Positions 7,618 through 29,899 of a stretch of DNA of 64,000 bases are shown in pieces. The position numbers and the translations under genes were made by a program. The notes beneath the pieces were generated by a model. It was not told where the DNA came from and did no database searches. It saw only the letters and a list, made by a program, of their open reading frames with translations. Numbering within the stretch: position 1 is the stretch's first letter; each line of letters starts with the position of its first letter. The stretch is from Camelus ferus (taxonomy: Eukaryota): positions 43,030,001 through 43,094,000 of the forward strand of contig NC_045696.1 in assembly GCF_009834535.1 (NCBI RefSeq), in the 5' to 3' direction.

Positions 7618-9212
7618 TACTATTATTATTGAAATATAGTTGATATACAGCATTATATTAGTTTCAAGTGTACTATATAGTGATTTGACATTTGCATATA
7701 CTATGAAATAATCACTATGATAAATCTAGTAACCATCTGTCCCCATACAAAGTTATGGCAATATTGTTGACCATGTTTCTCATGCTGTGTATTATGTCCC
7801 TGTTACTTACATATTTTGTAAGTTGGGAGTTGTACCTGTTAATCCCCTTCATCTATTTCACCCCCAAACTCCCTCCCCTCTGGCAACCACCCATTTGTTC
7901 TCTGAGTTTTTGTTTTGTTTCTTTTAGATAACACGTATAAATGAGAGCATACTATATTTGCCTTTATCTATCCTTTTGTACATTTTATTTATTTATTTTT
8001 ATTTAAAGTATATCTGATATACAAAATTATATTAGTTTCAGGTGTGCCACATTGTAATTCAGTGTTTTTACAGATTATACTTCATTTAAAATTATAACAG
8101 GATAATGGCTGTAAATCCCTGTGCTGTACAACACACCCTTGTTGCTTATATATTTTATACATAGTAGTTTCAATCTCTTAATCCCATAGCCCTCGTTTGT
8201 CCCTCCCCATTTCCCTCTCCTCTTTGATGACCACTAGTCTGTTGTCCATATCTGTTAATTTGTTTATGTTTTGCATATGTAGTTGTATTATTTTTTAGAT
8301 TCCACATATAAGTGATGTCACATACTATTTGTCTTCTCTAACTTAATTCACAAAGTGTAATATTCTCTAGGTCCATCCATGTTGCTGCAAATGGCAGAAT
8401 TTCATTGTTTTTTATAGCTCAGTAATATTCCATTGTCTATATATATATATATATATGTAGCACATCTTCCTTATCCATTCATCTGTTGATGGGCACATGG
8501 ATTGTTCCCATATCTTGGCTATTGTATTTAGCGCTGCTGTGAACATTGGGGTGCAATGTATCTTTTCAAATTGGTGTTTTCATTTTTCCAGATATATATC
8601 CAGGAGTGGAATTGCTGGATCAAATGGTAGTTCTATTTTTAGTTTTTTGAGGAGGCTTCATGCTGTTTTCCGTAGGGGCTGGGCCAAGTTACGTTTCCTC
8701 CAACAGTCATGAAGTTTCCCTTTTCTTCGTATCCTCTCCTACATTTATTATTTGTAGACTTTTTGATGATAGTCATTCTAACCAACGTGAGGTGATAACT
8801 CATTGTGGTTTTGACTTTCATTTCTCTAATAATTATTTATGTATGTGTGAGCATCTTTCATGTGTCAGTTGGCCATCTATACGTCTTTGGAGAAAATGTC
8901 TATTGTAAGGCCTGAAACCATGAAACTCAGAGGAAAACGTAGACAGTGTGCTCTTTGACATCAGTCTTAGAAATATTTTCTTGTCTCTATCCTCTAAAGC
9001 AAGGGAAACAAAATAAATAAACAAACTGCACTACATCAAACTAAAATGCTTTTGCATGAGGAATGGAACTATCAATAAAATGAAAAGGCCGCCTACTGAA
9101 CGGCAGAAGACATTTGCAAGTAATATATCCTGTTCAGGGTTAGTATATGAAATATACAAGGAACTTATACAACTTTATACCAAAAAAAAAAAAACAGATT
9201 TAAAAAAGATCT
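7618..9212 (-). mobile_element. 5'-truncated, 5'-inverted L1 with two tandem 3' ends
   Basis: Two antisense L1 3' ends (7618-~7965 and ~7985-8905) are followed by a sense ORF2 piece (8905-9212). ORF 8639..8821 resembles the ORF2 Cys-rich domain. Candidate TSD gaaaac(t/g)t(a/g)tttcttttt at 7600-7617 and 9213-9230. Confidence 0.85.
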
Positions 9213-14845: not shown

Positions 14846-17800
14846 CTAGAGACAAACAAACAACACTCCATGAAGCAAAGCCTTCTGGAGCTGGAAGGTA
14901 TTGATTGCTTTTTCAGTAAAGGACTTAATGTATCTTAAAATCTCACATTTGAATCTTTCCTCCTATTACGTGAATCTTATTCTTTGTAAAATTATAAAGC
15001 ACATCTGCAAGCACACATTTTTCTCCAAGAGTTAGATTGTATGTTTACCTTACTGTTGGATGATTTTTGCCTCTGTCTTTGATTTCCTAGAGGTGGATTA
15101 TTTTTTCTATTATACTTTTACATATTCTAGCCTAATAATTTTAGTTGGTTTCCTAAATATGTCTTCCACTGACTCACCTCCAAATTGCTCTCCTTGCTAC
15201 TCCTATCTCTAATGCTCTCTTTTCCCTTGGTCTACTCCCCCAGTTTCCACATTACAAAATTACACTCAGTTTTGAATTAATACCTACTTTTTCCTTGGTA
15301 CCTTTAATCATTATCCCAGATAATTGTGATATATGCCTCTTCGGACTCCAGTAACTTTTGAGGATTATATCTCTTCACAGCATATCATACTTAATATTGT
15401 ATTTATTAGATTTTTAGAAGTATGTATTTAATACTACAATAATATACTATAATATTTATATGCACATTTTACATACCACTACATATGTAATAACATACTA
15501 TTATACTCTTCTGAACCATGCTTTTAAACTTTTTATTTTGAAGCTATTTTAGAACATCAGTAAGTTACAAAAATAGTAGGTAGTTCCCAGATAACACTCA
15601 CCCATTTTCCCCTAATGTTCACATTTTGTATAATTATAGTACAGTTATCAAAATGAATATATTGAATTGATTTTGCAATATTAACTAAACTATAGAGTTG
15701 ATTTAGATTTTACCATTATTTTCATTAATACATTTTATTTTCTTTTTCAGGACCCAATTCAGTATGCCACACTGCATTCAGTCATTATGTCTCTATTCAC
15801 TTACTTATGTACATCAGTATAGAATCATGAATATCTTAATCTATGAGTTATTATTCAACACCATTTTTATTCATTTTCACATTTAGCCATTGGAAAATCT
15901 TTCTTATTGTTACTATGACCTTTGGACATGCCCAAATTCTTTTTTTGAGTTCTTCCTTACATTTCCAAAACTACAAGTGTTCCAGGCTCACTTTGTGTTT
16001 TCCTGGCCCAGCCTTGGAATCAATTCTTTTCTTAAGGAACCCCAATTCTTAGTATAGGATATTGATATTTAGAAACCAGGATCTGAGTGTTAGGTGTGCT
16101 CATTGCCACTCATATATCATTACTTCTGTGCCCTCTCAGCAAACAAGCTGGGGAATACATGTATGTTACCTGCATGTACACACACATACATCTATGTATG
16201 CTTTATGTTTTTAAATATGCATATTTCAAAGTCACAAGTTCTTAAGATCAGTGATTCCAATTCATTACCACCAGAGAGTTCATTTCTGCCTTCCCTCTTT
16301 CCTTATTTGTAACTCCTTTCTGCAATAAGAAGGAACCTGGGTCACATTATTTATATTTTCTTATTTGTTCAACCTTAGCATATACGGAAAGCATTTTAGA
16401 ATTGTTGCCCCTGATCTCTATGAGAAACAAATTTACTAACTAGAATGTAATATTTGTGTAGAGTCCTTTTAGTCTTCAGTTTTATAGCAAAATACTGTTT
16501 TCTAAGGTACTTTGGTTAGCTTCTTATTTTCTGCTTCCTGTAGTTTGGCTGTTATGGATGGTAACACAGTTAGACTTCATGTTAACAGTTTGTATTCGGT
16601 TCCTCACCTATCATAGTTGATTTTTTAAAAGATAGTAAAATTTACTCATTGTGGTAAATCATCTGTGGGCTTTGACAAAAGCTTAGAGTTCTGTACCCAT
16701 GACCACGATCATAATGAACAGCTGTAACATGCCAAAAATTCCCTCATGCCGCCATCTGTAATCAGCCCCTCTTCTCATCTCAAACCCCTGGCAACCACTG
16801 ATCTGATTTCAGTCCATATAGTCTCGCCTTTTCTAGAAATTAATATCAATGGAATCATATAGCATGTAGCCTCTGAGTCTATCTTCTCTCACTTCTCAAA
16901 ATGCATTTAAGATTCACACCTGTTGCTGCATTCAACAGTTCATTGCTTTTTATTGTTGAGTAGTATTGCATTGTATGGACCTATCATACTCAGCTTCTCT
17001 GTTTACCAGGTTGTTTCCACTTTGGAGCCGCTGTGAAAAAATAACCTGCTATAAACATTTGCATTTTTTGTGTTTACTTTTTATTTCTCTTTAGTAAATA
17101 CCTCACAGTGAGATTGCCAAATCATAAATATAGGTATAAGTTTTTAAGAAACTGGAGAATTATTGTTCATTTATTTATTTACTTATTTAACTTTCAACAT
17201 TTTTTTATTGAGTTATAGTCATTTTACAATATCGTGTCAAATTCTAGTGTACAGCACAATTTTTCAGTTATACCTGAACATATATATATTCATTGTCATA
17301 TTTTTTTTTGCTATGAGCTACCACAAGATCTTATATATATTTCCCTGTGCGATACAGTATAATCTTGTTTATTCTGCATTTTAAAATCCCAGTCTGTCCC
17401 TTCCCAACCCCCTGCTCCCTTGGCAGCCACAAGTTTGTATTCTATGTCTATGAGTCTGTTTCTGTTTTGTATTTATGTTTTGGTTTTTTTTTTTTTTTTT
17501 TTTTTTTTTAGATTCCTCATATGAGCGATCTCATATGGTATTTTTCTTTCTTTTTCTGGCTTACTTCACTCTGAATGACATTCTCCAGGAACATCCATGT
17601 TGCTGCAAATGGTGTTATGTTGTCGGTTTGTGGCTGAATAGTATTCCATCATATAAATATACCACAGCTTCTTTATTCAGTTATCTGTTGATGGACATTT
17701 AGGCTGTATCCATGTCTTGGCTATTGTAAATGGTGCTGCTATGAACTATTGTTGCAGGTGCAGGTGTCATTTTGAAGTAGAGTTCCTTCTGGATATATGC

Positions 17801-18022
17801 CCAGGAGTGGGATTCCTGGGTCCTGTGGTAAGTCTATTCCTAGTCTTTTGAGGAATCTCCATACTGATTTCCACAGTGGCTTTCCTTGCTTCCCTCTCCC
17901 ACTCTTAATGAGTTAAATGTCTTCTTTTACAATTTTGTGTTTATTCTTTTTGCAATTCATGACAGTTATCTCCTTTCCAGTTATGAGTTTCTCATTTTTG
18001 TAGCATCCTGCTTCTTTTCTAT

Positions 18023-18925
18023 TTAGAGTAGACCTGTCAGTATTTCTTTTAGCATGGGTTTAGTGTTGCTAAACTCTTGTAGTTTTTGCTTGTCTGTGAA
18101 GTTCTTTATCTCTCCTTCTATTCTAAAAGATAGCCTTGCTGGATAGAGTATCCTAGGCCGCATCTTTTTTTCATTCAGGACCTTGAATATATCTTGCCAC
18201 TCCCTTCTGGCCTGTATTGTTTGTGTAGAGAAATCAGCTTAGAGCCTTATGGGGGTTCCCTTGCAGCTCACTCTTTGCTTTTCTCTTGCTGCCTTTAGGA
18301 TCATTTCTTTCTCCTTAACTCTGGCCATCTTGATTATGAAATGTCTTGGTGTGGGTCTGTTTGGGTTCTTCCTGTTTGGGACCCTCTGAGCCTCCTGTAC
18401 TTGGATATCTGATTCCTTCTTTAGGTTTGGGAAGTTTTCAGTTATGATTTCTTCAAATACCTTTTAAATCCCTTTTATTCTTTCTTCCCCTTCTGGAACC
18501 TCTATTATGCATACATTGGCACACTTTATATTATCCTGTAAGTCCCTTATATTGTTTTCATTGTTTTTTATTTGTTTTTCTCTCAGCTGTTCTGCTTGGG
18601 TGCTTTCTGTTGTCCTGTCTTCTAGATCACTAATTCGTTCCTCTGCATAATCTAGCCTGCTTTGCACAGCCTTTAGGTCAGCTCTCATCTCAGCAAGTGA
18701 GTTTACTAATTCTACTTGGTTCTTCTTTATAGCTTCTATTTCATTTTTGACATATTTTATATCTCTAAACACTATTTCTTTTAGTTCCTTCAGTACTTTG
18801 ATCAGTCCTTTTTTGAAATCTTGAGCTAGTAAGTTATCAATGTCTATTTCCTTGATCGTGCTTTCAGGGGATTTCTCTTGATCTTTTAATTGGGAGTGGT
18901 TCCTCTGCTTCTTCATATTGCTCAT
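18023..18925 (-). pseudogene. L1 ORF1p (coiled-coil, RRM, CTD) of the half-L1; 301 codons with two premature stops
   Basis: ORF track 18464..18925 is highly similar to ORF1p at 26302..27150. Manual read-through gives TAA at 18464 (GAA in the other copy) and TAA at 18239 (TCA in the other copy). There is no frameshift, and the frame continues through ARREW, ILYPARLSF and KPMLKEILTGLL*. Confidence 0.93.
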
Positions 18926-19107
18926 ATCTCTCTGGCACTGTGCTTAAGGAGTATCAGTTATCTAGTTCTCCTGGAGATGGTGTGCTCTGAATGATTTTAT
19001 TGAGAGGTCTTTGTGTCTTTGCCCTCTTTTGCAAACTCAGCTTGCTGTTTCCAGAGGCCCTCTGTTGGCGCCCTCATCTGTGCTGCTCCCAGTGGCTGTT
19101 GGCTAGC

Positions 19108-19320
19108 AGATCGTGCCCCCTCCCAACACTGGGTCAGGTGCTGAGCTCTTACCTTGTGGGCGGGCGGGTCACTCCCCCTCACGATGCCGCAGTCAGATGC
19201 TGCACTCAGGTGAGGAAGGTGGGCGGATCGTGCCCCCTCCCAGCACTGTGGTCAGGTGCTGCATTCCTGCCAGGAAGGCAGTTGGCTGCCCACCCTCTCC
19301 CGGGGCCAGTTGCTCTGCTG
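19108..19320. repeat. Degenerate ~58-59 bp tandem repeat (3-4 units) in the L1 5'UTR
   Basis: Units start at 19110 (atcgtgccccctcccaacactgggtcaggtgctg), 19168 (gtcactccccctcacgatgccgcagtcagatgctg) and 19227 (atcgtgccccctcccagcactgtggtcaggtgctg), with a weaker unit at about 19285. A homologous array lies at about 27690-27890. Confidence 0.8.
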
Positions 19321-20233
19321 CTCTGTGCAGCTGCCCACTCCACCTCAGATCAGTGCTCCAAAGGCAGGCCTGGGGACAGCCATGGAATGGCCCTGCCCCT
19401 GCTCCGTGCCAAATCTCAGCTCCTTGTTTGTCTTGGCAGTGTGAGTTGTCTGAGGTGCGAGGGCAGAAAGATCCTATCTGCCTTGGGCTGTAAACAAGTC
19501 TCAGTCCTGCCTAGGAGGTTGAGGAGCCCCTGGCTGGGGATTCAGGTCTTGGCCCCGCCCCTATCCAGGCGCTCACACAGGAGATGGCAACTGTGGCTGA
19601 ATCCCGCCTCTCTTCTCTTGAGAAGCGCCAGTAATGGTGATGCAGTTCTGAGGAGACAAAGGCTATGGCGCCCCTCCCCCCAGGGCACACCAGCCAAGTT
19701 GCTTTGCTTTTTTCACAATTTATGGAGGACCAAGGTTGTTCTGCTCCATATCCCCTCCCAGCCACAGAGCGCAGCACCCTGCAGTCCCCTGGGGAGGCAG
19801 CCACCCCAGTCCTCTGCCCAGCTCGGGCGGCCTGTCCTGGCCCCAGCTGCCGGCTCGTGTCTTGGGCTGGGTGTCGCAAGGACCCTCTGTGCCCATTTAA
19901 CTTAGTTCTGTCAGTCAAGGGGTGCTTGGGGCAGATCTGAGCCTAGAGGCTCCCCCTCTGTCCCCCTGGCCTCTCTGTTGGAGAGGGAAGACGCAGCGAC
20001 TGAGCACCAGTCCTCCTTTGCCACTCCCTCCCCATGGGATCAGTCCCGCACTGTTTTGCTTTTTCTTCTTTCTTTTTTCCTCTTCTGCTACCAGATTTTT
20101 GGCGTCTTTGTCTTTTGAAGAGGGCGATATCCTGTCAGAGTTTGGCAGCTGCTCTGGTTGGCTGAGTGAGTACATAGATGTGAGTTTTGGTGTATTTGTG
20201 GGAGAGGGTGAGCTACCAGCGTCCTTCTGCTCT

Positions 20234-20241
20234 GCCATCTT
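20234..20241 (-). promoter_or_regulatory. YY1 site at the 5' end of the half-L1
   Basis: AAGATGGC on the - strand, about 13 nt inside the element start, the canonical position for L1 internal promoters. Confidence 0.75.
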
Positions 20242-20669
20242 GCTTCCTCTCCTTGAGAATTATTTTTCAAAGTGGCTGTACGATTCTGTGTTCTGACCAG
20301 CGATGCATGAATTCTAGGTACTCCACATTCTTTCCAGCTTTTGATATTTTAATTTTCTTTGATATTAGTAATTATAATTAATGCACAGTGGTATCATACT
20401 GTGGCTTCAATTTGCATTTCTCCAACTAATGATATTCAGCATTTTTTCATATGCTTCTTTTCCATGTTGTATATCTTCTGTGGTAAAATGTCTGTTTAGA
20501 TATTTTCCCCATGTTTAATTTTTTTTTTCTTATTTTAGTCTTATTTTTCTGTTATTATAAGAATTCTTTATATAATCTGGATCCAAGTTTCTTGTAAGAA
20601 GTGTGATTTGTAAATGTCTTTTCCTGGTCTGTGGCTAGTCCTTTCATTATCTTAACCATGAATTATGCA

Positions 20670-21260
20670 TTCAGGAAAGCTGGTGAGATGACACTCCTAA
20701 ATCCTGCTGAAGTAGGGCATGCATGGGATGAGAGAATGTGTTGCAAAATCCCCAGTTACAGGTGTGTGGGTGTGTGTGTATGTTTATGGCAGGAGAGTGG
20801 TTCTCTAAAGAAACCACAAGAGTGCTCCACCAAAGAAAAAGGTCAGTTATAAAATCAGCAAGATCAGGCTTCAGACAGTACCTGTAAAGTGAGAGTTGTC
20901 CAGGTAGTCTCTCTTCCCTCCTGACCCTTCAGCCCAGGTGCCTGAATGGGGAAAGATATAAGGAAAAGAGATGACCCAACCTTAATCCCTTACCAGGGAA
21001 CATGCAGTGCAGCAGCAGCCTTTCCTGGAGTTAAAATAACTTTATATTAAGGGAGAAGAGATGGCTATTAGATGGGACTGAACATCTAAGTGTTGAACCA
21101 TAAGTCTGCTTTTTTCTGTAAGTTACCATAGAAGTATTTACAGTCTGTGCATGATTTGAAAATTAGCAAAACCCTCTAAGTTTCAAGTAGGAAAGGGGGA
21201 ATAAATGAATAAATTTTAAAGTGACAGTGGAAGGCATTGTGTTGCTTTGTGAATATAGGT
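20670..21260 (+). mobile_element. Possible ancient LTR fragment
   Basis: Purine-rich island with gatataagg, ggactgaacatctaag and aataaattttaaagtgacagtgg, reminiscent of old mammalian LTRs. Family not determined. Confidence 0.3.
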
Positions 21261-22085
21261 TATGATTCCTATATGTTCAATGTAACTGATGTAATTTCTA
21301 TAAAGAATATCACATTCCTTTTTATGTGTTCCTTTATAATGATGTGTCATAATTGATTTTACTCCTACTCTGTGGGCATTTCGATTATTAGCTACAAATA
21401 ATTCTAAATAATTCTCCTCCTGTGTTTGTCATTTTGAAGGAGACTACATGCAGGAAATATTCTTAGGTATGAAATTGTTGAGGTAGGCATTGCCAAAATT
21501 CTCTCTAAAATTTTGTTGCAATTTGCATTTCTATCATCAGTGTGCCCACTTTGCTGTATCTTATAATGAACAATTTTTGTCAGTCTGATAAGTTTCTTAA
21601 AGGCAATTTTATAATTTCAGTTAACATCACTCTCATTCTGAGAGAATAGAAATTTTTTAGTTTAACAATTAAATTTTTCTGTGAAATATCTTCTGAATAT
21701 TCTCTTTGCATACCTTCCTTATAGTCTTATTCTTACTAGTTTTTAGTAGCTCTTTATATGTTAGAGAACTTAGTTCTCTGAGGCATTAGTGGCAATTATT
21801 TCCCTTTATGATATTTGTAATTTGATTATGATTATGTGCTTTTTTTTTTAGTTTTTTTTTTTGCTATAATTCACCTTTTTCTTTTTTTTAACATTTTTTA
21901 TTGATTTATATTCATTTTACAATGTTGTGTCAAATTCCAGTGTTCAGCACAATTTTTCAGTCATTCATGGACATATACACACTCATCGTCACATTTTTTT
22001 CTCTGTGAGTTATCATAACATTTTGTGTATATTTCCCTGTGCTATACAGTGTAGTCTATTCTACAATTTTGAAATCCCAGACTAT

Positions 22086-22104
22086 CCCTCCCCACCCTCC
22101 ACCC
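22086..22104 (-). other. G-quadruplex-forming polypurine tract in the L1 3'UTR
   Basis: The - strand reads GGGTGGAGGGTGGGGAGGG, four runs of at least 3 G. A G-rich tract is a known L1 3'UTR feature. Confidence 0.7.
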
Positions 22105-22203
22105 TCCTGGTAACCACAAGTCTGTATTCTCTGTCTGTGAGTCTATTTCTGTCCTTTATTTATGCTTTGTTTTTGTTTGTTTGTTTGTTTTTGTTTTTGT
22201 TTT

Positions 22204-25200
22204 TTAGATTCCACATATGAGCAATCTCATATGGTATTTTTCTTTCTCTTTCTGGCTTACTTCACTTAGAATGACATTCTCCAAGAGCATCCATGTTGCT
22301 GCAAATGGCATTATGTTGTCGGTTTTTATGGCTGAGTAGTATTCCATTGTATAAATATACCACCTCTTCTTTATCCAGTCACCTGTTGATGGACATTTAG
22401 GCCTGTTTCCATGTTTTGACTATTGTAAATAGTGCTGCTATGAACATTGGGGTGCAGGTGTCATCCTAAAGTAGATTTCCTTCTGGATACAGGCCCAGGA
22501 GTGGGATTCCTGGGTCATATGATAAGTCTATTCCTAGTCTTTTGAGGAATCTCCACACTGTTTTCCATAGTGGGTGCACCAAACTGCATTCCCACCAGCA
22601 GTGTAAGAGGGTTCCCCTTTCTCCACAGCCTCTCCAGCATTTGTTGTTTGTGGATTTTTGAATGACGGCCATTCTGACTGGTGTGAGGTGATACCTCATT
22701 GTAGTTTTGATTTGCATTTCTCTGATAACTAGTGATATTGAGCATTTTTTCATGTGCTTTTTGCTCATTTGTATGTCTTCCTTGGAGAATTGCTTGTTAA
22801 GGTCTTCTGCCCATTTTTCGATTGGGTTGTTTATTTTTTTCTTATTGAGTCATATGAGCTGCTTATATATTCTGGAGATCAAGGCTTTGTCAGTTTCACT
22901 TGCAAAAATTTTCTCCCATTCCGTAGGTTTTCTTCTTGTTTTACTTCTGGTTTCCTTTGCTGTGCAGAAGCTTGTAAGTTTCATTAGGTCCCATTTGTTT
23001 ATACTTGCTTTTATTTCTTCTAGGAGAAAATTTTTGAAATGTATGTTAGATAATGTTTTGCCTATGTTTTCCTCTAGGAGGTTTATTGTATCTTGTGTTA
23101 TGTTTAAGTCTTTAATCCATTTTGAGTTGATTTTTGTATATGGTGTAAGGGAGTGTTCTAGCTTCATTGTTTTACATGCTGCTGTCCAGTTTTCCCAACA
23201 CCATTTGCTGAAGAGACTGTCTTTATTCCAATGTATATTCTTGACTCCTTTGTCAAAGATCAGTTGACCAAAAGTTTGTGGGTTCATTTCTGGGCTCTCT
23301 ATTCTGTTCCATTGGTCTATATGTCTGTTTTGGTACCAATACCATGCTGTCTTGATGACTGTAGCTCTATAGTATTGTCTGAAGTCTGGGAGAGTTATTT
23401 CTCCAGCCTCTTTCTTTCTCTTCAGTAAAGCTTTGGCAACTCTAGGTTTTTGATGGTTCCATATAAATTTTATTATGATTTGTTCTAGTTCTGTGAAGTA
23501 TGTCCTGGGTAACTGGATAGGGATTGCATTAAATCTGTAGATTGCCTTGGGCAGTGTGACCATTTTAACAATATTGATTCTTCCAATCCAAGAGCATGGA
23601 GTATCTTTCCATTTTTTAAAGTCTTCTTTAATTTCCTTCATCAGTGGTTTATAGTTTTCTGTGTATAATTCTTTCACCTCCTTGGTTAGATTTATTCCCA
23701 GATATTTTATTACTTTGGGTGCTATTTTAAAGGGGATTGTTTCTTTACTTTCTTCTTCTGTTGATTTATCGTTAGTGTAAAGAAATGCAACTGATTTTTG
23801 AACGTTAATGTTGTAACCTGCTACCTTGCTGAATTCTTCAATCAGCTCTAGTAGCTCTTGTGTGGACCTTTTAGGGTTTTCTATATATAGTAACATGTCG
23901 TCGGCATATAGTGACACTTTTACCTCTTCTTTTCCAATTTGGATCCCTTTTATTTCTTTCTCTTGCCTGACTGCTGTGGCTAGGACTTCCAGGACTATGT
24001 TGACTAGGAGTGGTGATATTGGGCATCCTTGTCTTGTCCCAGATTTTAGTGGGAAGCTTTTGAGCTTTTCACCGTTGAGTACTATGCTGGCTGTAGGTTT
24101 GTCATATATAGCTTTTATTATGATGAGGTATGTTCCCTCTATACCCACTTTGGCGAGAGTTTTTATCATAAATGGGTGTTGAATTTTATCAAATGCTTTT
24201 TCTGCATCGATTGAGATGATCATGTGGTTTTTGTCCTTTCTCTTGTTGATGTGATGTATTACACTGATTGATTTGCGTATGTTGAACCAGCCTCGTGTCC
24301 CTGGGATGAACCCCACTTGGTCATGATGTATCATCTTTTTTATGTGTTGTTGGATTCTATTTGCTAAAATTTTGGTGAGGATTTTGGCGTCTATGTTCAT
24401 CAGTGATATTGGCCTATAATTCTCTTTTTTTGTAGTGTCTTTGCCTGGTTTTGGTATCAGGGTGATGGTGGCTTCATAGAATGAGTTTGGGAGTATTCCC
24501 TCCTTTTCAATCGTCTGGAAGAGTTTGAGAAGGACTGGTATGAGTTCTTCTTTGTATGTTTGGTAGAATTCCCCGGTGAAGCGTCCGGTCCTGGACTTTT
24601 ATTTGTAGGGAGGTTTTTAATTGCTATTTCTATTTCCTTTCTAGTGATCGGATTGTTCAAGTGTTCAGATTCTTCTTGATTCAGTTTTGGTGGACAGTAT
24701 GTTTCCAGAAACTTGTCCATCTCCTCTAGGTTATCCAGTTTGGTTCCATATAGTTTTTCATAATATTCTCGTATGATATTCTGTATTTCTATTTTGTTTG
24801 TTGTAATTTCTCCATTTTCCTTTCTTATTTTGCTAATTTGTGCTCTCTCTTTTTTCTTCTTTGTGAGTTTGGCCAGAGGTTTGTCGATTTTATTTACTTT
24901 TTCAAAAAACCAGCTTTTGGTTTGGTTGATTTTTTCTATGGTCTTGTTAATCTCTATTGTATTTAATTCCTCTCTGATCTTTATTATTTCCTTCCTTCTG
25001 CTGCTTTTTGGGGCTTTTTGTTCTTCTTTGTCTAATTCATTCAGGTGGTGGGTTAAATTGTTTATTTGAGATTGTTCTTCTTTTTTTGAGGAAGGCCTGT
25101 ATCGCTATAAACTTCCCTCTTAGCACTGCCTTTGCTGTGTCCCATAGGTTTTGAGTGGTTGTGCTTTCATTCTCATTTGTCTCAAGGTATTTTTTAATTT

Positions 25201-25992
25201 CAGCTTTGATTTCCTCATTGATCCATTGTTTTTTCAATAACATATTGTTTAATCTCCATGCTTTCCTTTTTTTCTCCTTTGTTTCTCTGTTGTTGATTAT
25301 CCAGTTTCATGGCATTGTGGTCAGTAAAGATGCTTGAGATAATTTCTATCTTCTTAAAATTGTTGAGGTTCCTTTTGTGCCCAAGTACATGATCGATCCT
25401 GGAAAATGTTCCATGTGCACTTGAAAAGAATGTATATCCTATTTTTGGGGGGTGTAATGCTCTGAAAATATCCACCAAATCTAGTTTTTCTATTGTAGTA
25501 TTTAATTTCTCTGTTGCCTTGTTTTCTGTCTGGAAGATCTGTCTAGTGATGTTAATGCAGTGTTAAAATCTCCAACTATGATTGTATTCCCATCAATATC
25601 CCCCTTTATCTCTGTTAGTAATTCTTGTATGTACTTAGGTGCTCCTATATTGGGTGCATATATATTAACGAGTGTAATATCCTCATCTTGTATCACTCCT
25701 TTAATCATTATAAAATGTCCTTCTTCTTTATGGCCTTTGTTTTAAAGTCTATTTTGTCTGAAATCAGTACTGCAACACCTGCTTTTTTGGCTTTTCCATT
25801 TGCATGGAATATCCTTTTCCATCCTTTCACTCTCAATCTATATGTGTCCTTCTCCCTAAAGTGGGTCTCTTGTATGCAGCATATTGAAGGTTCTTGCTTT
25901 ATTATCCAGTCTGCCACTCTGTGTCTTTTGACTGGAGCATTTAGTCCATTAACATTTACAGTAATTAATGATAGATGTGTGTTTATTGCCAT
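22204..25992 (-). pseudogene. L1 ORF2p (APE endonuclease, reverse transcriptase, Cys-rich domain), disrupted
   Basis: EN motifs: TVNVNGLN, CCIQETH, NIYAPN, VGDFNT, SRIDHVL, FTDHN. RT motifs: [38 protein letters not shown] knuckle: [18 protein letters not shown]. Lesions: frameshifts near 25725, 25520, 25298, 25085, 24583 and 22402, and stops at 22850 and 22466. Confidence 0.97.
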
Positions 25993-26255
25993 TTTGAACT
26001 TATCTTTGCAGTTGAATTGGTATATCCTCTTTGTTCCTTTCTTCTTCCTTTTGTGGTTTGGTAATTTTCCTTTGTATTATCATGGATTTTATTTAATTTT
26101 TGTGACTCCCTTGTAAATTTTTGGCTTGTGGTTACCCTTTTCTGTAAGTCTATTAGCCCATTACTGTATCTCGAACCCATCCTACTGAGAACAAAAGTTA
26201 TCACCGTCTCCAGTTGTGAGTTTCTCATTTCTGTAGCATCCTGCTGCTTTTCTAT

Positions 26256-27150
26256 TTAGAATAGCCCTTTCAATATTTCTTTTAGCATGGGTTTAGTGTT
26301 GCTAAACTCCTGCAGCTTTTTTTTTGTCTGTGAAACTCTTTATTTCTCCTTCTATCCTCAAGGATAGCCTTGCTGGATAAAGGATCCTAGGCTGCATCTT
26401 TTTTTCATTCAGGGCTTTGAATATATCTTGCCACTCCCTTCTGGCCTGTAGTGTTTGTGTAGAGAAATCAGCTGAGAGCCTTATGGGGGTTCCCTTGTAA
26501 CTTACTCTTTGCTTTTCTCTTGCTGCCTTTAGAATCATTTCTTTCTCCTTGACTCTGGCCATCTTGATTATGATATGTCTTGGTGTGGGTCTATTTGGGT
26601 TCTTCCTGTTTGGGACCCTCTGAGCTTCCTGTACTTGGATATCTGATTCCTTCTTTAAGTTTGGGAAGTGTTCAGTCACGATTTCTTCAAAAACCTTTTC
26701 AATCCCCTTTGATCTTTCTTCTCCTTCTGGGACCCCTATTATGCGAAGATTGGGAAGCTTTATATTATCCCATAGGTCCCTTATGCTATTTTCATTATTT
26801 TTTATTTGCTTATCTTGTAGTTCTTCTGAATGGGTGCTTTCTATTGCCCTGTCTTCTAGATCACTAATTCGTTCCTCTGCATTATCTAGTCGGCTTTGCA
26901 CAGCTATTAGATCATTCCTCATCTCTGTCAATGAGTTTACCCATTCTACTTGGCTCTTCTTTATAGCTTCAATTTCATTTTTGACATATTTTATATCTCT
27001 AAACACTATCTCTTTTAATTCCTTCAGCAATTCGATCACTCTTTTTTTGAAATCTTGATCTAGTAGGCTATCGATGTCTATTTCGTTGATCTTTCTTTCA
27101 GGGGATTTCTCTTGTTCTTTTAATTGGGAAAGGTTTTTCTGCTTCTTCAT
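26256..27150 (-). pseudogene. L1 ORF1p with a single +1 frameshift near the C-terminus
   Basis: The 282-aa ORF has a coiled coil, PRHIIIK, ARREW and ILYPARLS. An A9 run at about 26317-26325 (A8 restores the frame) leads to LQEFSNTKPMLKEILKGLF*. The span is 895 nt = 3n+1. Confidence 0.95.
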
Positions 27151-27599
27151 CTTGCCTCTTTGGCACTGTGGTTTACGGAGTATCAGTTGTTTATTTTGGT
27201 CCTTAAGGATTTTATCTATCTGTTGCCTATTTAGGAATAGAACTTAGGAAAAAAAGAAAAAAAAATAAGAGAGAGAAAGAATTTTAAAAGAAGGGAGAAA
27301 GAGGGTTTGAAAACAGTGTATAATGAATAATAGAAGAGTGAGTTGAAGCAGAGTATTAATCGGGTTGAGACGTCCTTTTAAAACCTTTAGAAAAAAAGGG
27401 GGGTAGATGAATAGATGTATTTGAAACCTGTGTCTAATCAATACCAGGACATCAAAACCCAAGAGAAATAGAAATGAATTAAGAAGTAAAGATTTAGAGA
27501 GTAATAGAAAATAGAACAGGTAAAAACAGATTTAAAAAAAAAAAGGGGGGGGGTGTTCTCCTGGAGTCTGTGTGCTTTTAATGTGAAGTCTTTCTGTCT

Positions 27600-28814
27600 T
27601 CGCCCTGTTTTGGAAGCTCAGCTTGCTGTTTTAAGAGGCCCTCCGTTGGCGCCCTCTTCTGTGCTGCTCCCAGCACCTGTTGGCAAGCTGATCGCGCCTC
27701 CTCCTATCACTGGGTCAGGTGCCGCTCTCTGCTGTGGCCGGGCGGGTCGCTGCCCCTCCGGATGCCATAGTCAGACGTTGCAGACTGGCCAGGTAGGAGG
27801 GCGGGTCTTGCCCCTTCCCAGCACCTCGGTCAGGGGCTGTGTTCCTGCCGGAAAGGCAGGGGGGCCGCTCTCCCTCTACCTGCGCAGCTGGTAGTTCCGC
27901 TCTCTGTGCGGCTGCGCACTCCGCCCTGGTCGGCGCTCCGCAGGTGGGCTCGGGGAAGACCGAGGGACAGCCCTGTCCCTGCTCCGAGCCAGAACCCAGC
28001 TCCTTGTTTGTCTTTGTGGAGCAAGTTCTCTGAGGGACCAGGATGGAAGGATCCTATCTGCCCCAGACTGCAGGCCAGTCTCAGTCTGGCCTTTGAGGCT
28101 GCTAAGCCCTTTGGTGCGGATGCAGGTTTCGCTCCTGCCCCCGCCTGAGTGCTCAGCGCAGAGGATATGGCGGCTGTGCCTGAGCCCCGCCTCTCTTCCC
28201 CCGAAAACTTTCCGCGGGTTTTCAGAGATGGGGGTGTGCACCCTTCCTCCGAGAGCACATCAACCGTGCTGTTTTATGGAGGGCCCAGGTTGTTCTGCCC
28301 TGTGCACCCACAGCCATGGCGGCAGCCCCTTGCGTTCCCCCGGGGCTGCCTCCGTGCAGCCACTTCCGTCCTCCTCCCGGCTTGTGCAGCCTGGCCCTGC
28401 CCGCCGCTGCCGGCCCGCCTCTCAGGCTGGGTGTCGGGGGGACGCTCTGTGCCCGTTTAACTTAGTTCTGTTAGTCAAGGGCTGCTCTGTACAGATCCGA
28501 GCCTCGGAGGCTCCCCCTCCCTCCTGCTGGCCTCTCAGTTGGAGAGAGGAGGCCCAGCTGAGCGAGCGCCAGTCCTCCTTTGCCGCTCCCTCCCCGCGGG
28601 ACCAGTCCGGCGCTGCTTTGCCTTTTGTTCTTTCTTTTTTCCTTTTCTCCTACCAGATTTTTGACGTCTTTATCCTTTGAAGAGGGCGATGTTCTGTCGG
28701 AGTTCCACAGGTGCTCTGGTTGGCTGAGTGGGTCCGTAGATGTGGGTCTTGGTGTATTTGTGGGAGAGGGTGACCTGCGAGCGTCTTTCTACTCCGCCAT
28801 CTTCTCCGTCTCTC
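27600..28814 (-). promoter_or_regulatory. CpG-rich L1 internal promoter with YY1 site (28794-28803)
   Basis: The most CpG-dense stretch in the window. The - strand 5' end reads GAGAGACGGAGAAGATGGCGG, containing the YY1 consensus AAGATGGCGG. Confidence 0.85.
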
Positions 28815-29899
28815 CTTTTTTTTTTAGTTTTTATATAATTGAATTTATCAGTCTGTTATATATAATGGCTCTGGATTCTGCTATAATTAGAAAAACTTCT
28901 TTCCTCTAATATGTATGTATGTATCTATGCATTTATTTGAAAACATGTAAATATATATTGCATACTTTTGTCTAATATTTTAATGTTTATTGTTTACATT
29001 TAAATTTTAGATTCATTTATAATCTGTGTTGCATGGCAAGAAATGTATCTGCCTTTAATTTTTTCAACTATCTGGATTTTTCTTCCCCAAACAATTTCAC
29101 ATGTTGATTTTAAATGAACTTAATTCTGAATTCATTTATCATATATTACATTCCTAAATACATTTAAGTAACTTCTAGACTTTGTCGACTCTTCAGTCTA
29201 TATCTTTATGTATTATTATTGTACTATTATCAATTACTATTTACTTTATAATATAAAAATTCATTTGTACATATAATTTTTAAAGGAAAATCTGGTAAAG
29301 TTAGTACAGCATTTTGATCATATCGGTTACTCTTATTTTTTGGAATTTCACAGATAGTTCTTACTTCTCCACATTAAGATTTGGGCTATTAAAGTCAGGA
29401 ACTGAGACTTAAGACATTTTTATTTAATGCAATGAATAGCACAGTGCCCAATGCCTAAAACAAAGTAAGTGAATCATAGAATATTTGCTGAATTAAATTG
29501 CAATTACTTTAAAATAATAGCACCACAAAACTGGTCTTTCATCTAGGGAATTAGATAGGGGATGCCGATTTGAAATTTTCTGTGCAGATAACACACAACT
29601 GCCAGACAAGAAAGAAGTGAAGGCATGAAATAACAGAAGCCCACAGGACTTGTGGTAGTTTTGATGATGGGAAGGGCAATGACAGCATTTCTGGATAAGT
29701 ATGTTATTTGTATTAATATCATAGTTTGAAACTCACGTAACTCCTTACTAGTAAACTAACCATGAGTATTGTATCCTGTTAGATCACTTGTCAAGGATAG
29801 ACTCTAGAAGAGATTCATTGATCAGCTGAATATGCAAACATTTCTCCTTATCCTGATAACAGGACTCTCACTTTCAAGAATCCTGTTTTCCATCTTCCA

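Follow-up and report, generated by a model that had tools for sequence, protein, structure and literature searches.

An L1 derivative of 3,085 bp lies at 17170–20254 on the minus strand of the window, by which we mean the whole 64,000-nucleotide stretch of Camelus ferus contig NC_045696.1 that was analysed. Both of its ends and its ORF1 are kept, and nearly all of ORF2 is gone. In our judgement there is about an even chance that it is a copy of a camelid family of non-autonomous, HAL1-like L1 derivatives, and a one-off origin, taken over all its forms, falls somewhat short of even. Half-L1 parasites with this layout have been described before in other mammals. The element is a decayed, dead copy, and we detected no sign of its use by the host.

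Anatomy of the element

The element is bounded as a retrotransposed unit, with a 5′ end, a tail, a TSD and an L1 endonuclease-type site all present (Table 1). The nick context is one mismatch from the L1 endonuclease consensus, and in a null test the TSD length was reached by none of 1000 random window pairs. These boundaries do not establish that the deletion preceded the insertion. The coordinates and anatomy of the original prediction (a 3.1-kb element with a 3′UTR, AATAAA, a tail and a 15-bp TSD with one mismatch) hold, with the qualification that the tail is a decayed TAAA-type repeat. A 26-base A run occupies 17484–17509, in the 3′UTR region.

Table 1. Features of the element, its target and the neighbouring L1 (positions in the window).
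Feature	Position	Strand	Details
Host old L1 ORF2 end, downstream part	16855..17154	-	continuous with 20270-20624
TSD, tail-end copy	17155..17169		15 bp, 1 mismatch to 20255-20269
Decayed A-rich tail, TAAA-type repeat	17170..17191	-	from sequence
L1 3′UTR	17192..17507	-	84% to neighbouring L1's 3′UTR
AATAAA polyadenylation signal	17204..17209	-	from sequence
ORF2 remnant	17508..17879	-	last 372 bp; 2 stops, 2 frameshifts
Spacer/ORF2 junction	17879..17880	-	AG dinucleotide at join assignable to either side
Retained inter-ORF spacer	17880..18022	-	143 bp; alignment to neighbour
ORF1	18023..18925	-	300 codons, nonsense at codons 154 and 229, 0 frameshifts
5′UTR, CpG-decayed	18926..20254	-	74% to neighbouring L1
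YY1-like core near 5′ end	20234..20241	-	from sequence; putative site
TSD, 5′-end copy	20255..20269		nick context TT/GAAA
Host old L1 ORF2, upstream part	20270..20624	-	alignment of rejoined flanks
Neighbouring full-length L1, younger subfamily	21850..28817	-	comparator, outside element

ORF1 contains all three Pfam L1 ORF1 domains. It is dead: it had been described as full-length and frameshift-free with two nonsense changes, and it indeed comprises 300 codons, both nonsense codons being TAA. It is of an older subfamily type, common to P0009, P0043 and P0051, and 125 of the 142 residues at 4–145 are identical to those of P0009. The closest named protein to the element comes from Camelus dromedarius.

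The 5′UTR had been called full, which the comparison with the neighbouring L1 contradicts. The neighbour has a further ~360-bp pyrimidine-rich tract (27196–27555, just before ORF1), which is missing at 18965–18967 of the element. Splicing out of this tract is unlikely, as the neighbour has no GT at its 5′ edge. The CpG o/e in this comparison is 0.26 in the element vs 0.56 in the neighbour. A YY1 site had also been placed at the 5′ end; the core read at 20234–20241 is YY1-like and makes a putative binding site.

The ORF2 remnant begins four codons past the CCHC knuckle and matches camelid ORF2 proteins P0003 and P0056. A loss corresponding to about 22575–26190 of the neighbour, covering EN, RT and the knuckle, had been proposed; the alignment agrees, since 22574–26195 of the neighbour is absent. 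The ORF2 enzyme and cysteine-rich parts that an autonomous L1 requires are therefore missing. Within the retained spacer, 17880–17963 (84 bp) has no counterpart in the neighbour. A meaningful spacer–ORF2 fusion protein was rejected: the spacer frame that continues into the remnant has a stop before the join, and in-frame joins arise one time in three.

The neighbour is not the parent of the element, because it belongs to a different, younger subfamily; its ORF1 is identical to intact P0007 at 291 of 300 positions. The two differ at 21 diagnostic residues in ORF1 4–145, with dS 0.33. The dN/dS values against the neighbour (0.26 for ORF1 and 0.75 for the ORF2 remnant) mix subfamily history with decay.

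The older L1 at the target site

The element was inserted into an older L1, and its flanks, once the element is removed, rejoin as one continuous old L1 (61% to the neighbour over 713 columns, E 3e-37). Host base 20275 is homologous to the junction base of the element, 17879, and lies 6–7 bp from the TSD/nick. Element and host share seven identical bases beginning at the join, where no host-specific bases were found. The window contains 1,972 endonuclease-like sites, and three to four positions would give such closeness of target and junction. Under a family origin this homology would be a coincidence of roughly 0.2–1%, a post hoc estimate, and it leans toward a one-off origin.

Family or single event

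If the element belongs to a HAL1-like family, a master copy would have lost ~90% of ORF2 while retaining the internal promoter, ORF1 and the 3′ end. Transcripts of the deleted master would have been coated by its own ORF1p, and ORF2p taken from full-length L1 would have reverse-transcribed them at new sites. Supply of ORF2p in trans is suggested by the absence of RT and by the target site, and ORF1p would presumably be needed in cis. The deletion would be older than the insertion, and other copies with the same junction would be expected. With these two breakpoints nearly all of ORF2 is removed while ORF1, the 5′ end and the 3′UTR survive, an outcome that we estimate for only ~1–2% of random large deletions. 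The second loss, of ~360 bp of 5′UTR relative to the neighbour, fits a shrinking non-autonomous lineage.

Decay in the two halves was compared in several ways. ORF1 has two disabling lesions in 900 bp and the ORF2 remnant four in ~355 bp (binomial p 0.058); private amino-acid changes number 15/232 and 11/103, respectively (p 0.19). Neither test is significant, and neither is the difference in private decay at replacement sites (~2.7% in ORF1, ~4.5% in the remnant). Together with the second deletion, both tests lean slightly to the family, if weakly. At silent sites ORF1 is more diverged from the neighbour than the remnant is (48/179 vs 9/76, p 0.009), which may mean that the 5′ half has a separate history. 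Against a family, this gap and the shorter 5′UTR may simply be features typical of an older subfamily that was autonomous. The target/junction homology also counts against it, as do the lack of a second junction copy in the collections described below and of a camelid HAL1 in the literature searched; the word HAL1 is missing from the main text of PMC8605555, a camelid TE survey, and of PMC5203782.

No second junction copy was found in collections that show no camelid DNA and few camelid proteins, and this blank therefore weighs little. Searches of plasmids and phages with the junction region gave no match, and the ORF1 of the neighbour retrieved no relative from viral contigs. Matches to a 20-base spacer motif numbered none in viral contigs, four in metagenome contigs and two in prokaryote genomes; all six are chance matches of 20–23 bases, one of them with a further weak 33-base match elsewhere in the window. 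For the junction peptide, all five candidate proteins match the ORF2 half only. Among the best 150 of 5,710 HMMER matches, 13 start before query residue 47, and the spacer peptide was found in none of the 11 inspected. Part of 17520–20700 is contained in 20 of 24 sequencing runs, 16 of which hold at least half its words (highest share in any run 0.54; three organisms); these word shares have no bearing on junction copy number or orthologues.

With one copy, a HAL1-type family and a one-off deletion cannot be told apart; this caution, given in the original prediction, still applies. Spliced L1 retrocopies and template-switch chimeras were not weighed there.

Among one-off origins, a target-guided template switch during insertion is a tentative and, on balance, unlikely explanation. 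The cDNA would have been copied from the 3′ end to the ORF2 position matching the old-L1 target, where it paired and paused; synthesis would then have restarted in the spacer, on the same L1 RNA or a different one, and run to the 5′ end. The closeness of junction and nick and the seven identical bases from the join argue for it, and the silent-site gap would also be accounted for if the switch was made between RNAs from different subfamilies. As far as their available text goes, PMC2912911 presents a model in which reverse transcription ends when the cDNA anneals to the 5′ target site, and PMC11702581 reports two-RNA insertions by template switching in experiments. However, the same portions of these papers imply that such pairing usually gives a 5′-truncated insertion rather than resumed synthesis. 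The switch must still have landed within the 143-bp spacer, the join carries nothing specific to the host, and the 5′UTR loss is left unexplained.

It is improbable that a full-length L1 of the older subfamily underwent a one-off internal deletion by end-joining, unrelated to the target, during or after insertion at 1–2 bases of microhomology. The junction was seen once, ORF1 and the remnant are similar in private decay, and the neighbour likewise has private losses of its own, which makes single-copy deletions common. However, both breakpoints would then have to coincide with those expected of a HAL1, and the homology to the target would have to be fortuitous too.

A retrocopy of a spliced L1 RNA, with a donor in the spacer, an acceptor just past the knuckle and ORF2p in trans, is very improbable; it would recur at several loci without a self-renewing family. 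The join reads AAG followed by the ORF2 restart. An acceptor AG is possible because camelid ORF2 P0056 has Gln at the codon preceding the restart, where the host and another old copy have CAG; however, the neighbour has CAC there, and the pyrimidine tract ahead of the AG is weak. The donor GT is putative, and the neighbour is without the spacer stretch at the breakpoint. Spliced L1 retrocopies (SpIREs) are known in human, although those in the accessible part of PMC5860796 splice the 5′UTR or ORF1, not ORF2. A mis-join in the assembly, skipping the central part of a full-length L1, is hardly credible: long repeats are often mis-assembled, but no N gap is present, both the TSD and the frame of the host are intact, and the 1–2 bases common to both sides are too few for overlap collapse.

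If the HAL1-like family is real, it would be a further example of an already known kind, a useful addition and no surprise. Camelids would join the mammals in which half-L1 lineages arose independently, and the lineage would be a young one, with parent subfamily and breakpoints still readable, in which continued selection on ORF1 after ORF2 loss could be tested cleanly. We consider it rather unlikely that the element is instead a unique snapshot of the birth of a half-L1, in which RT paused at the matching old-L1 position and jumped ORF2. In that case a promoter- and ORF1-bearing, TSD-flanked element would have been made in one step, giving a concrete route to the repeated independent origins of HAL1, and internally deleted L1s nested in older L1s should break near the target-homologous position. 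A target-guided one-off would point to a testable way for half-L1 founders to arise.

Comparison with HAL1 and other L1 derivatives

In the part of Larson et al. 2018 (PMC5860796) available to us, SpIREs resemble the element in their full 5′ end, their TSD and a clean internal loss, which in the element ends at a possible AG. The SpIREs described there lose 5′UTR/ORF1 sequence, whereas the element lost ORF2 and has a putative donor only. Template-switch or chimeric L1 insertions, in the available portions of PMC11702581 and PMC2912911, share with it two collinear pieces, minimal microhomology, one TSD and a cDNA end homologous to the target; synthesis resumed in the spacer to a full 5′ end is not described in those portions.

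A camelid L1 bears the Repbase name L1-2_Vpa in a table of PMC6726744; the element itself is not assigned to a named subfamily. Every part of it is homologous to camelid L1, but EN, RT and the knuckle are lacking, as are ~360 bp of 5′UTR when the neighbour is taken as reference. A C. dromedarius ORF2 fragment, KAB1266627.1, is a further representative of camelid L1.

The sources for HAL1 are reportedly Smit 1999 and Bao & Jurka 2010 (Gene 465:9). According to the accessible text of several papers, HAL1 (half-L1) elements are non-autonomous L1 derivatives made by internal deletion (PMC5753468, PMC5786205, PMC13756887, PMC4161310), and they arose several times in mammals (PMC5753468). The present element is likened to them by the architecture of one copy, no camelid HAL1 with the same junction having appeared in the literature searched, and it differs in keeping a recognizable 372-bp ORF2 end. 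Like a HAL1, it is L1-derived, with ORF1 and its Pfam domains present and the ORF2 enzyme domains absent. Both combine an L1 5′UTR and ORF1, no EN or RT, an L1 3′ end and an A-rich tail with a TSD at an L1-type site.

Anatomy of the element and its insertion site

The ORF1-only element is an L1 derivative flanked by two copies of a 15-bp target site duplication (TSD) with one mismatch, a length reached by 0 of 1000 random window pairs. With the element excised, its flanks rejoin as the end of a single old L1 ORF2 (61% identity to the neighbouring full-length L1 over 713 columns), which marks the element as a genuine insertion into a same-strand L1 of greater age. At the nick, the sequence is one base off the L1 endonuclease consensus. 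In sense order, the element consists of a 5'UTR, ORF1, a spacer, the end of ORF2, a 3'UTR, AATAAA and a decayed tail. ORF1 has stops at codons 154 and 229 and no frameshifts; this copy is no longer able to make ORF1p. Downstream, 143 bp of the inter-ORF spacer, including 84 bp absent from the neighbour, and the last 372 bp of ORF2 are kept, the latter carrying two stops and a pair of frameshifts. Both enzymatic domains (EN and RT) and the CCHC knuckle are missing, and comparison with the neighbour places the end of the knuckle four codons ahead of the ORF2 restart.

This anatomy agrees with the original prediction in its TSD, frameshift-free ORF1 with two stops, and loss of EN, RT and the knuckle. 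The description of the 5'UTR as full does not hold against the neighbour, whose 5'UTR is longer by a pyrimidine-rich tract of ~360 bp before ORF1, whose edges share three bases. Such tracts are common ahead of ORF1 in mammalian L1, and the missing tract would be a second deletion, provided the parent carried it. The element's 5'UTR contains about three decayed 59-bp repeats. The spacer reading frame, with one stop before the join, continues in frame through the junction into the ORF2 remnant; no protein spanning this frame was found in the databases searched.

Features of the element, its insertion site and other L1 copies in the window
Feature	Position	Strand	Remarks
L1 derivative (element)	17170-20254	minus	
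TSD copies	17155-17169, 20255-20269		
ORF1	18925-18023	minus	300 codons, three Pfam ORF1 domains
5'UTR repeats	19109-19279		
Spacer/ORF2 reading frame	17757-18029		
Junction (spacer/ORF2 join)	17879/17880		
Insertion site, old L1	20255-20338, 16855-17169		same strand as element
Neighbouring full-length L1	21850-28817	minus	
Neighbour segment missing from element	22574-26195		EN, RT, CCHC knuckle
Neighbour extra 5'UTR tract	27196-27555		
Older L1 ORF2 end	8259-9207		inverted piece at 8914-9207

Lineage, age and the neighbouring L1

Across ORF1 residues 4-145, 21 positions distinguish the types represented by two L1 ORF1 proteins, P0009 and P0007. The element shares 125/142 residues with P0009 and 112/142 with P0007, and the neighbour matches P0007 at 291/300. 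Judged from these residues, the element's ORF1 is of a multi-copy subfamily different from the neighbour's. Private changes put its decay at ~2.7% of replacement sites, measured against three reference proteins per region that are themselves decayed, and 5'UTR CpG observed/expected is 0.26 in the element versus 0.56 in the neighbour, a greater CpG loss. Taken together, ORF1 type, private decay and CpG loss indicate that the element predates the neighbour and does not descend from it. The sole named match to the junction peptide was a Camelus dromedarius ORF2 fragment (91% across half of the query).

Ten ENA-derived ORF1 fragments (P0011, P0044-P0052) are of the element's subfamily type, all with an identical frameshifted tail, and represent either one locus sampled repeatedly or a frameshifted sub-lineage. 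The neighbour looks young, with its ORF1 close to an intact protein and a 20-bp T-rich TSD (one mismatch). Even so, its ORF1 is frameshifted within an A run and has lost 6 bp at the start, its ORF2 is broken and its spacer is shorter; part of these defects may be assembly error. Elsewhere in the window, the ORF2 end of an older L1 (71% against the neighbour) adjoins an inverted piece of the ORF2 immediately upstream, which is the pattern of a 5'-inverted insertion.

A HAL1-type family or a single event

As a HAL1-type ('half-L1') element, this derivative would be transcribed from its internal promoter into a 3-kb RNA, which its ORF1p would package and the ORF2p of a full L1 would copy after nicking the target. 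We infer the need for ORF1p and the trans step; what is seen directly is the products of such a process. The element may work, or have worked, like a half-L1, with the evidence placing it neither inside nor outside a family.

A family predicts persisting constraint in ORF1 and drift in the ORF2 remnant. Against the neighbour, dS and dN are 0.33 and 0.084 for ORF1 and 0.13 and 0.096 for the remnant, values in which subfamily history and decay are mixed. Disabling lesions (2 in ORF1 versus 4 in the remnant, which is shorter; p 0.058) and private changes (15/232 versus 11/103, p 0.19) are skewed in the predicted direction, neither significantly. With assumed indel ratios, an ORF1 free of indels would arise by chance with a probability of 0.01-0.14. 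At silent sites, the gap between ORF1 and the remnant is significant (p 0.009), which would suit a 5' half with its own history, a two-RNA chimera or an ordinary swap of 5' halves between L1 lineages.

Searches by motif, DNA and protein revealed no other copy of the junction. In the collections covered, camelid proteins were few and camelid DNA was not seen, which makes this blank close to uninformative. Approximately half of the words of 17520-20700 were present in 16 of 24 sequencing runs, a result with no bearing on the junction.

The fact against a family is the homology between target and junction. The insertion site lies in the old L1 beside the junction-homologous position: host base 20275, 6-7 bp from the TSD, is homologous to the junction base, and seven bases starting at the join are identical in host and element. 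With 1,972 endonuclease-like hexamers in the window and 3-4 L1 copies reaching that position, a post hoc estimate gives a chance of ~0.2% for landing within ~10 bp of it, or ~1% allowing other remarkable positions. This match is the aspect most worth pursuing.

The readings were weighed by judgement rather than computation, from rough expected counts per genome: a few hundred full family copies, given a prior near 0.2, were set against guided switches, taken as rare, and chance deletions, taken as rarer still. On this judgement, a HAL1-type family has about an even chance and is slightly ahead. A one-off template switch guided at the target site is a possible but clearly less probable origin. 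Its mechanism exists in outline: reverse transcription can end when the cDNA pairs with the 5' target site (PMC2912911), and RNA-to-RNA template switching is observed (PMC11702581). The scheme is weakest where synthesis must restart within the short spacer rather than end as a truncated copy. A one-off plain deletion is unlikely, a spliced retrocopy improbable and mis-assembly scarcely credible. The internal deletions of tumour insertions are short and accompanied by inversions (10.1101/2024.08.27.596794), unlike the element's internal loss. Human spliced L1 retrocopies are dead ends (PMC5860796).

Relation to known HAL1 elements

HAL1, a derivative of L1 that is non-autonomous and encodes ORF1p only, has several mammalian origins (PMC5753468), is present throughout mammals (PMC13756887) and is grouped with other internal-deletion LINEs that keep ORF1 (PMC5786205); its use of L1 machinery is termed likely (PMC4161310). 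No camelid HAL1 was among the papers listed in a literature search; supplements, Repbase or Dfam may contain this family. The main text of a camelid TE survey (PMC8605555) does not mention HAL1, and the sole HAL1 entry in PMC6726744 is a fragment matched to HAL1-3_ML. At best, the element adds one member to the already known HAL1 kind.
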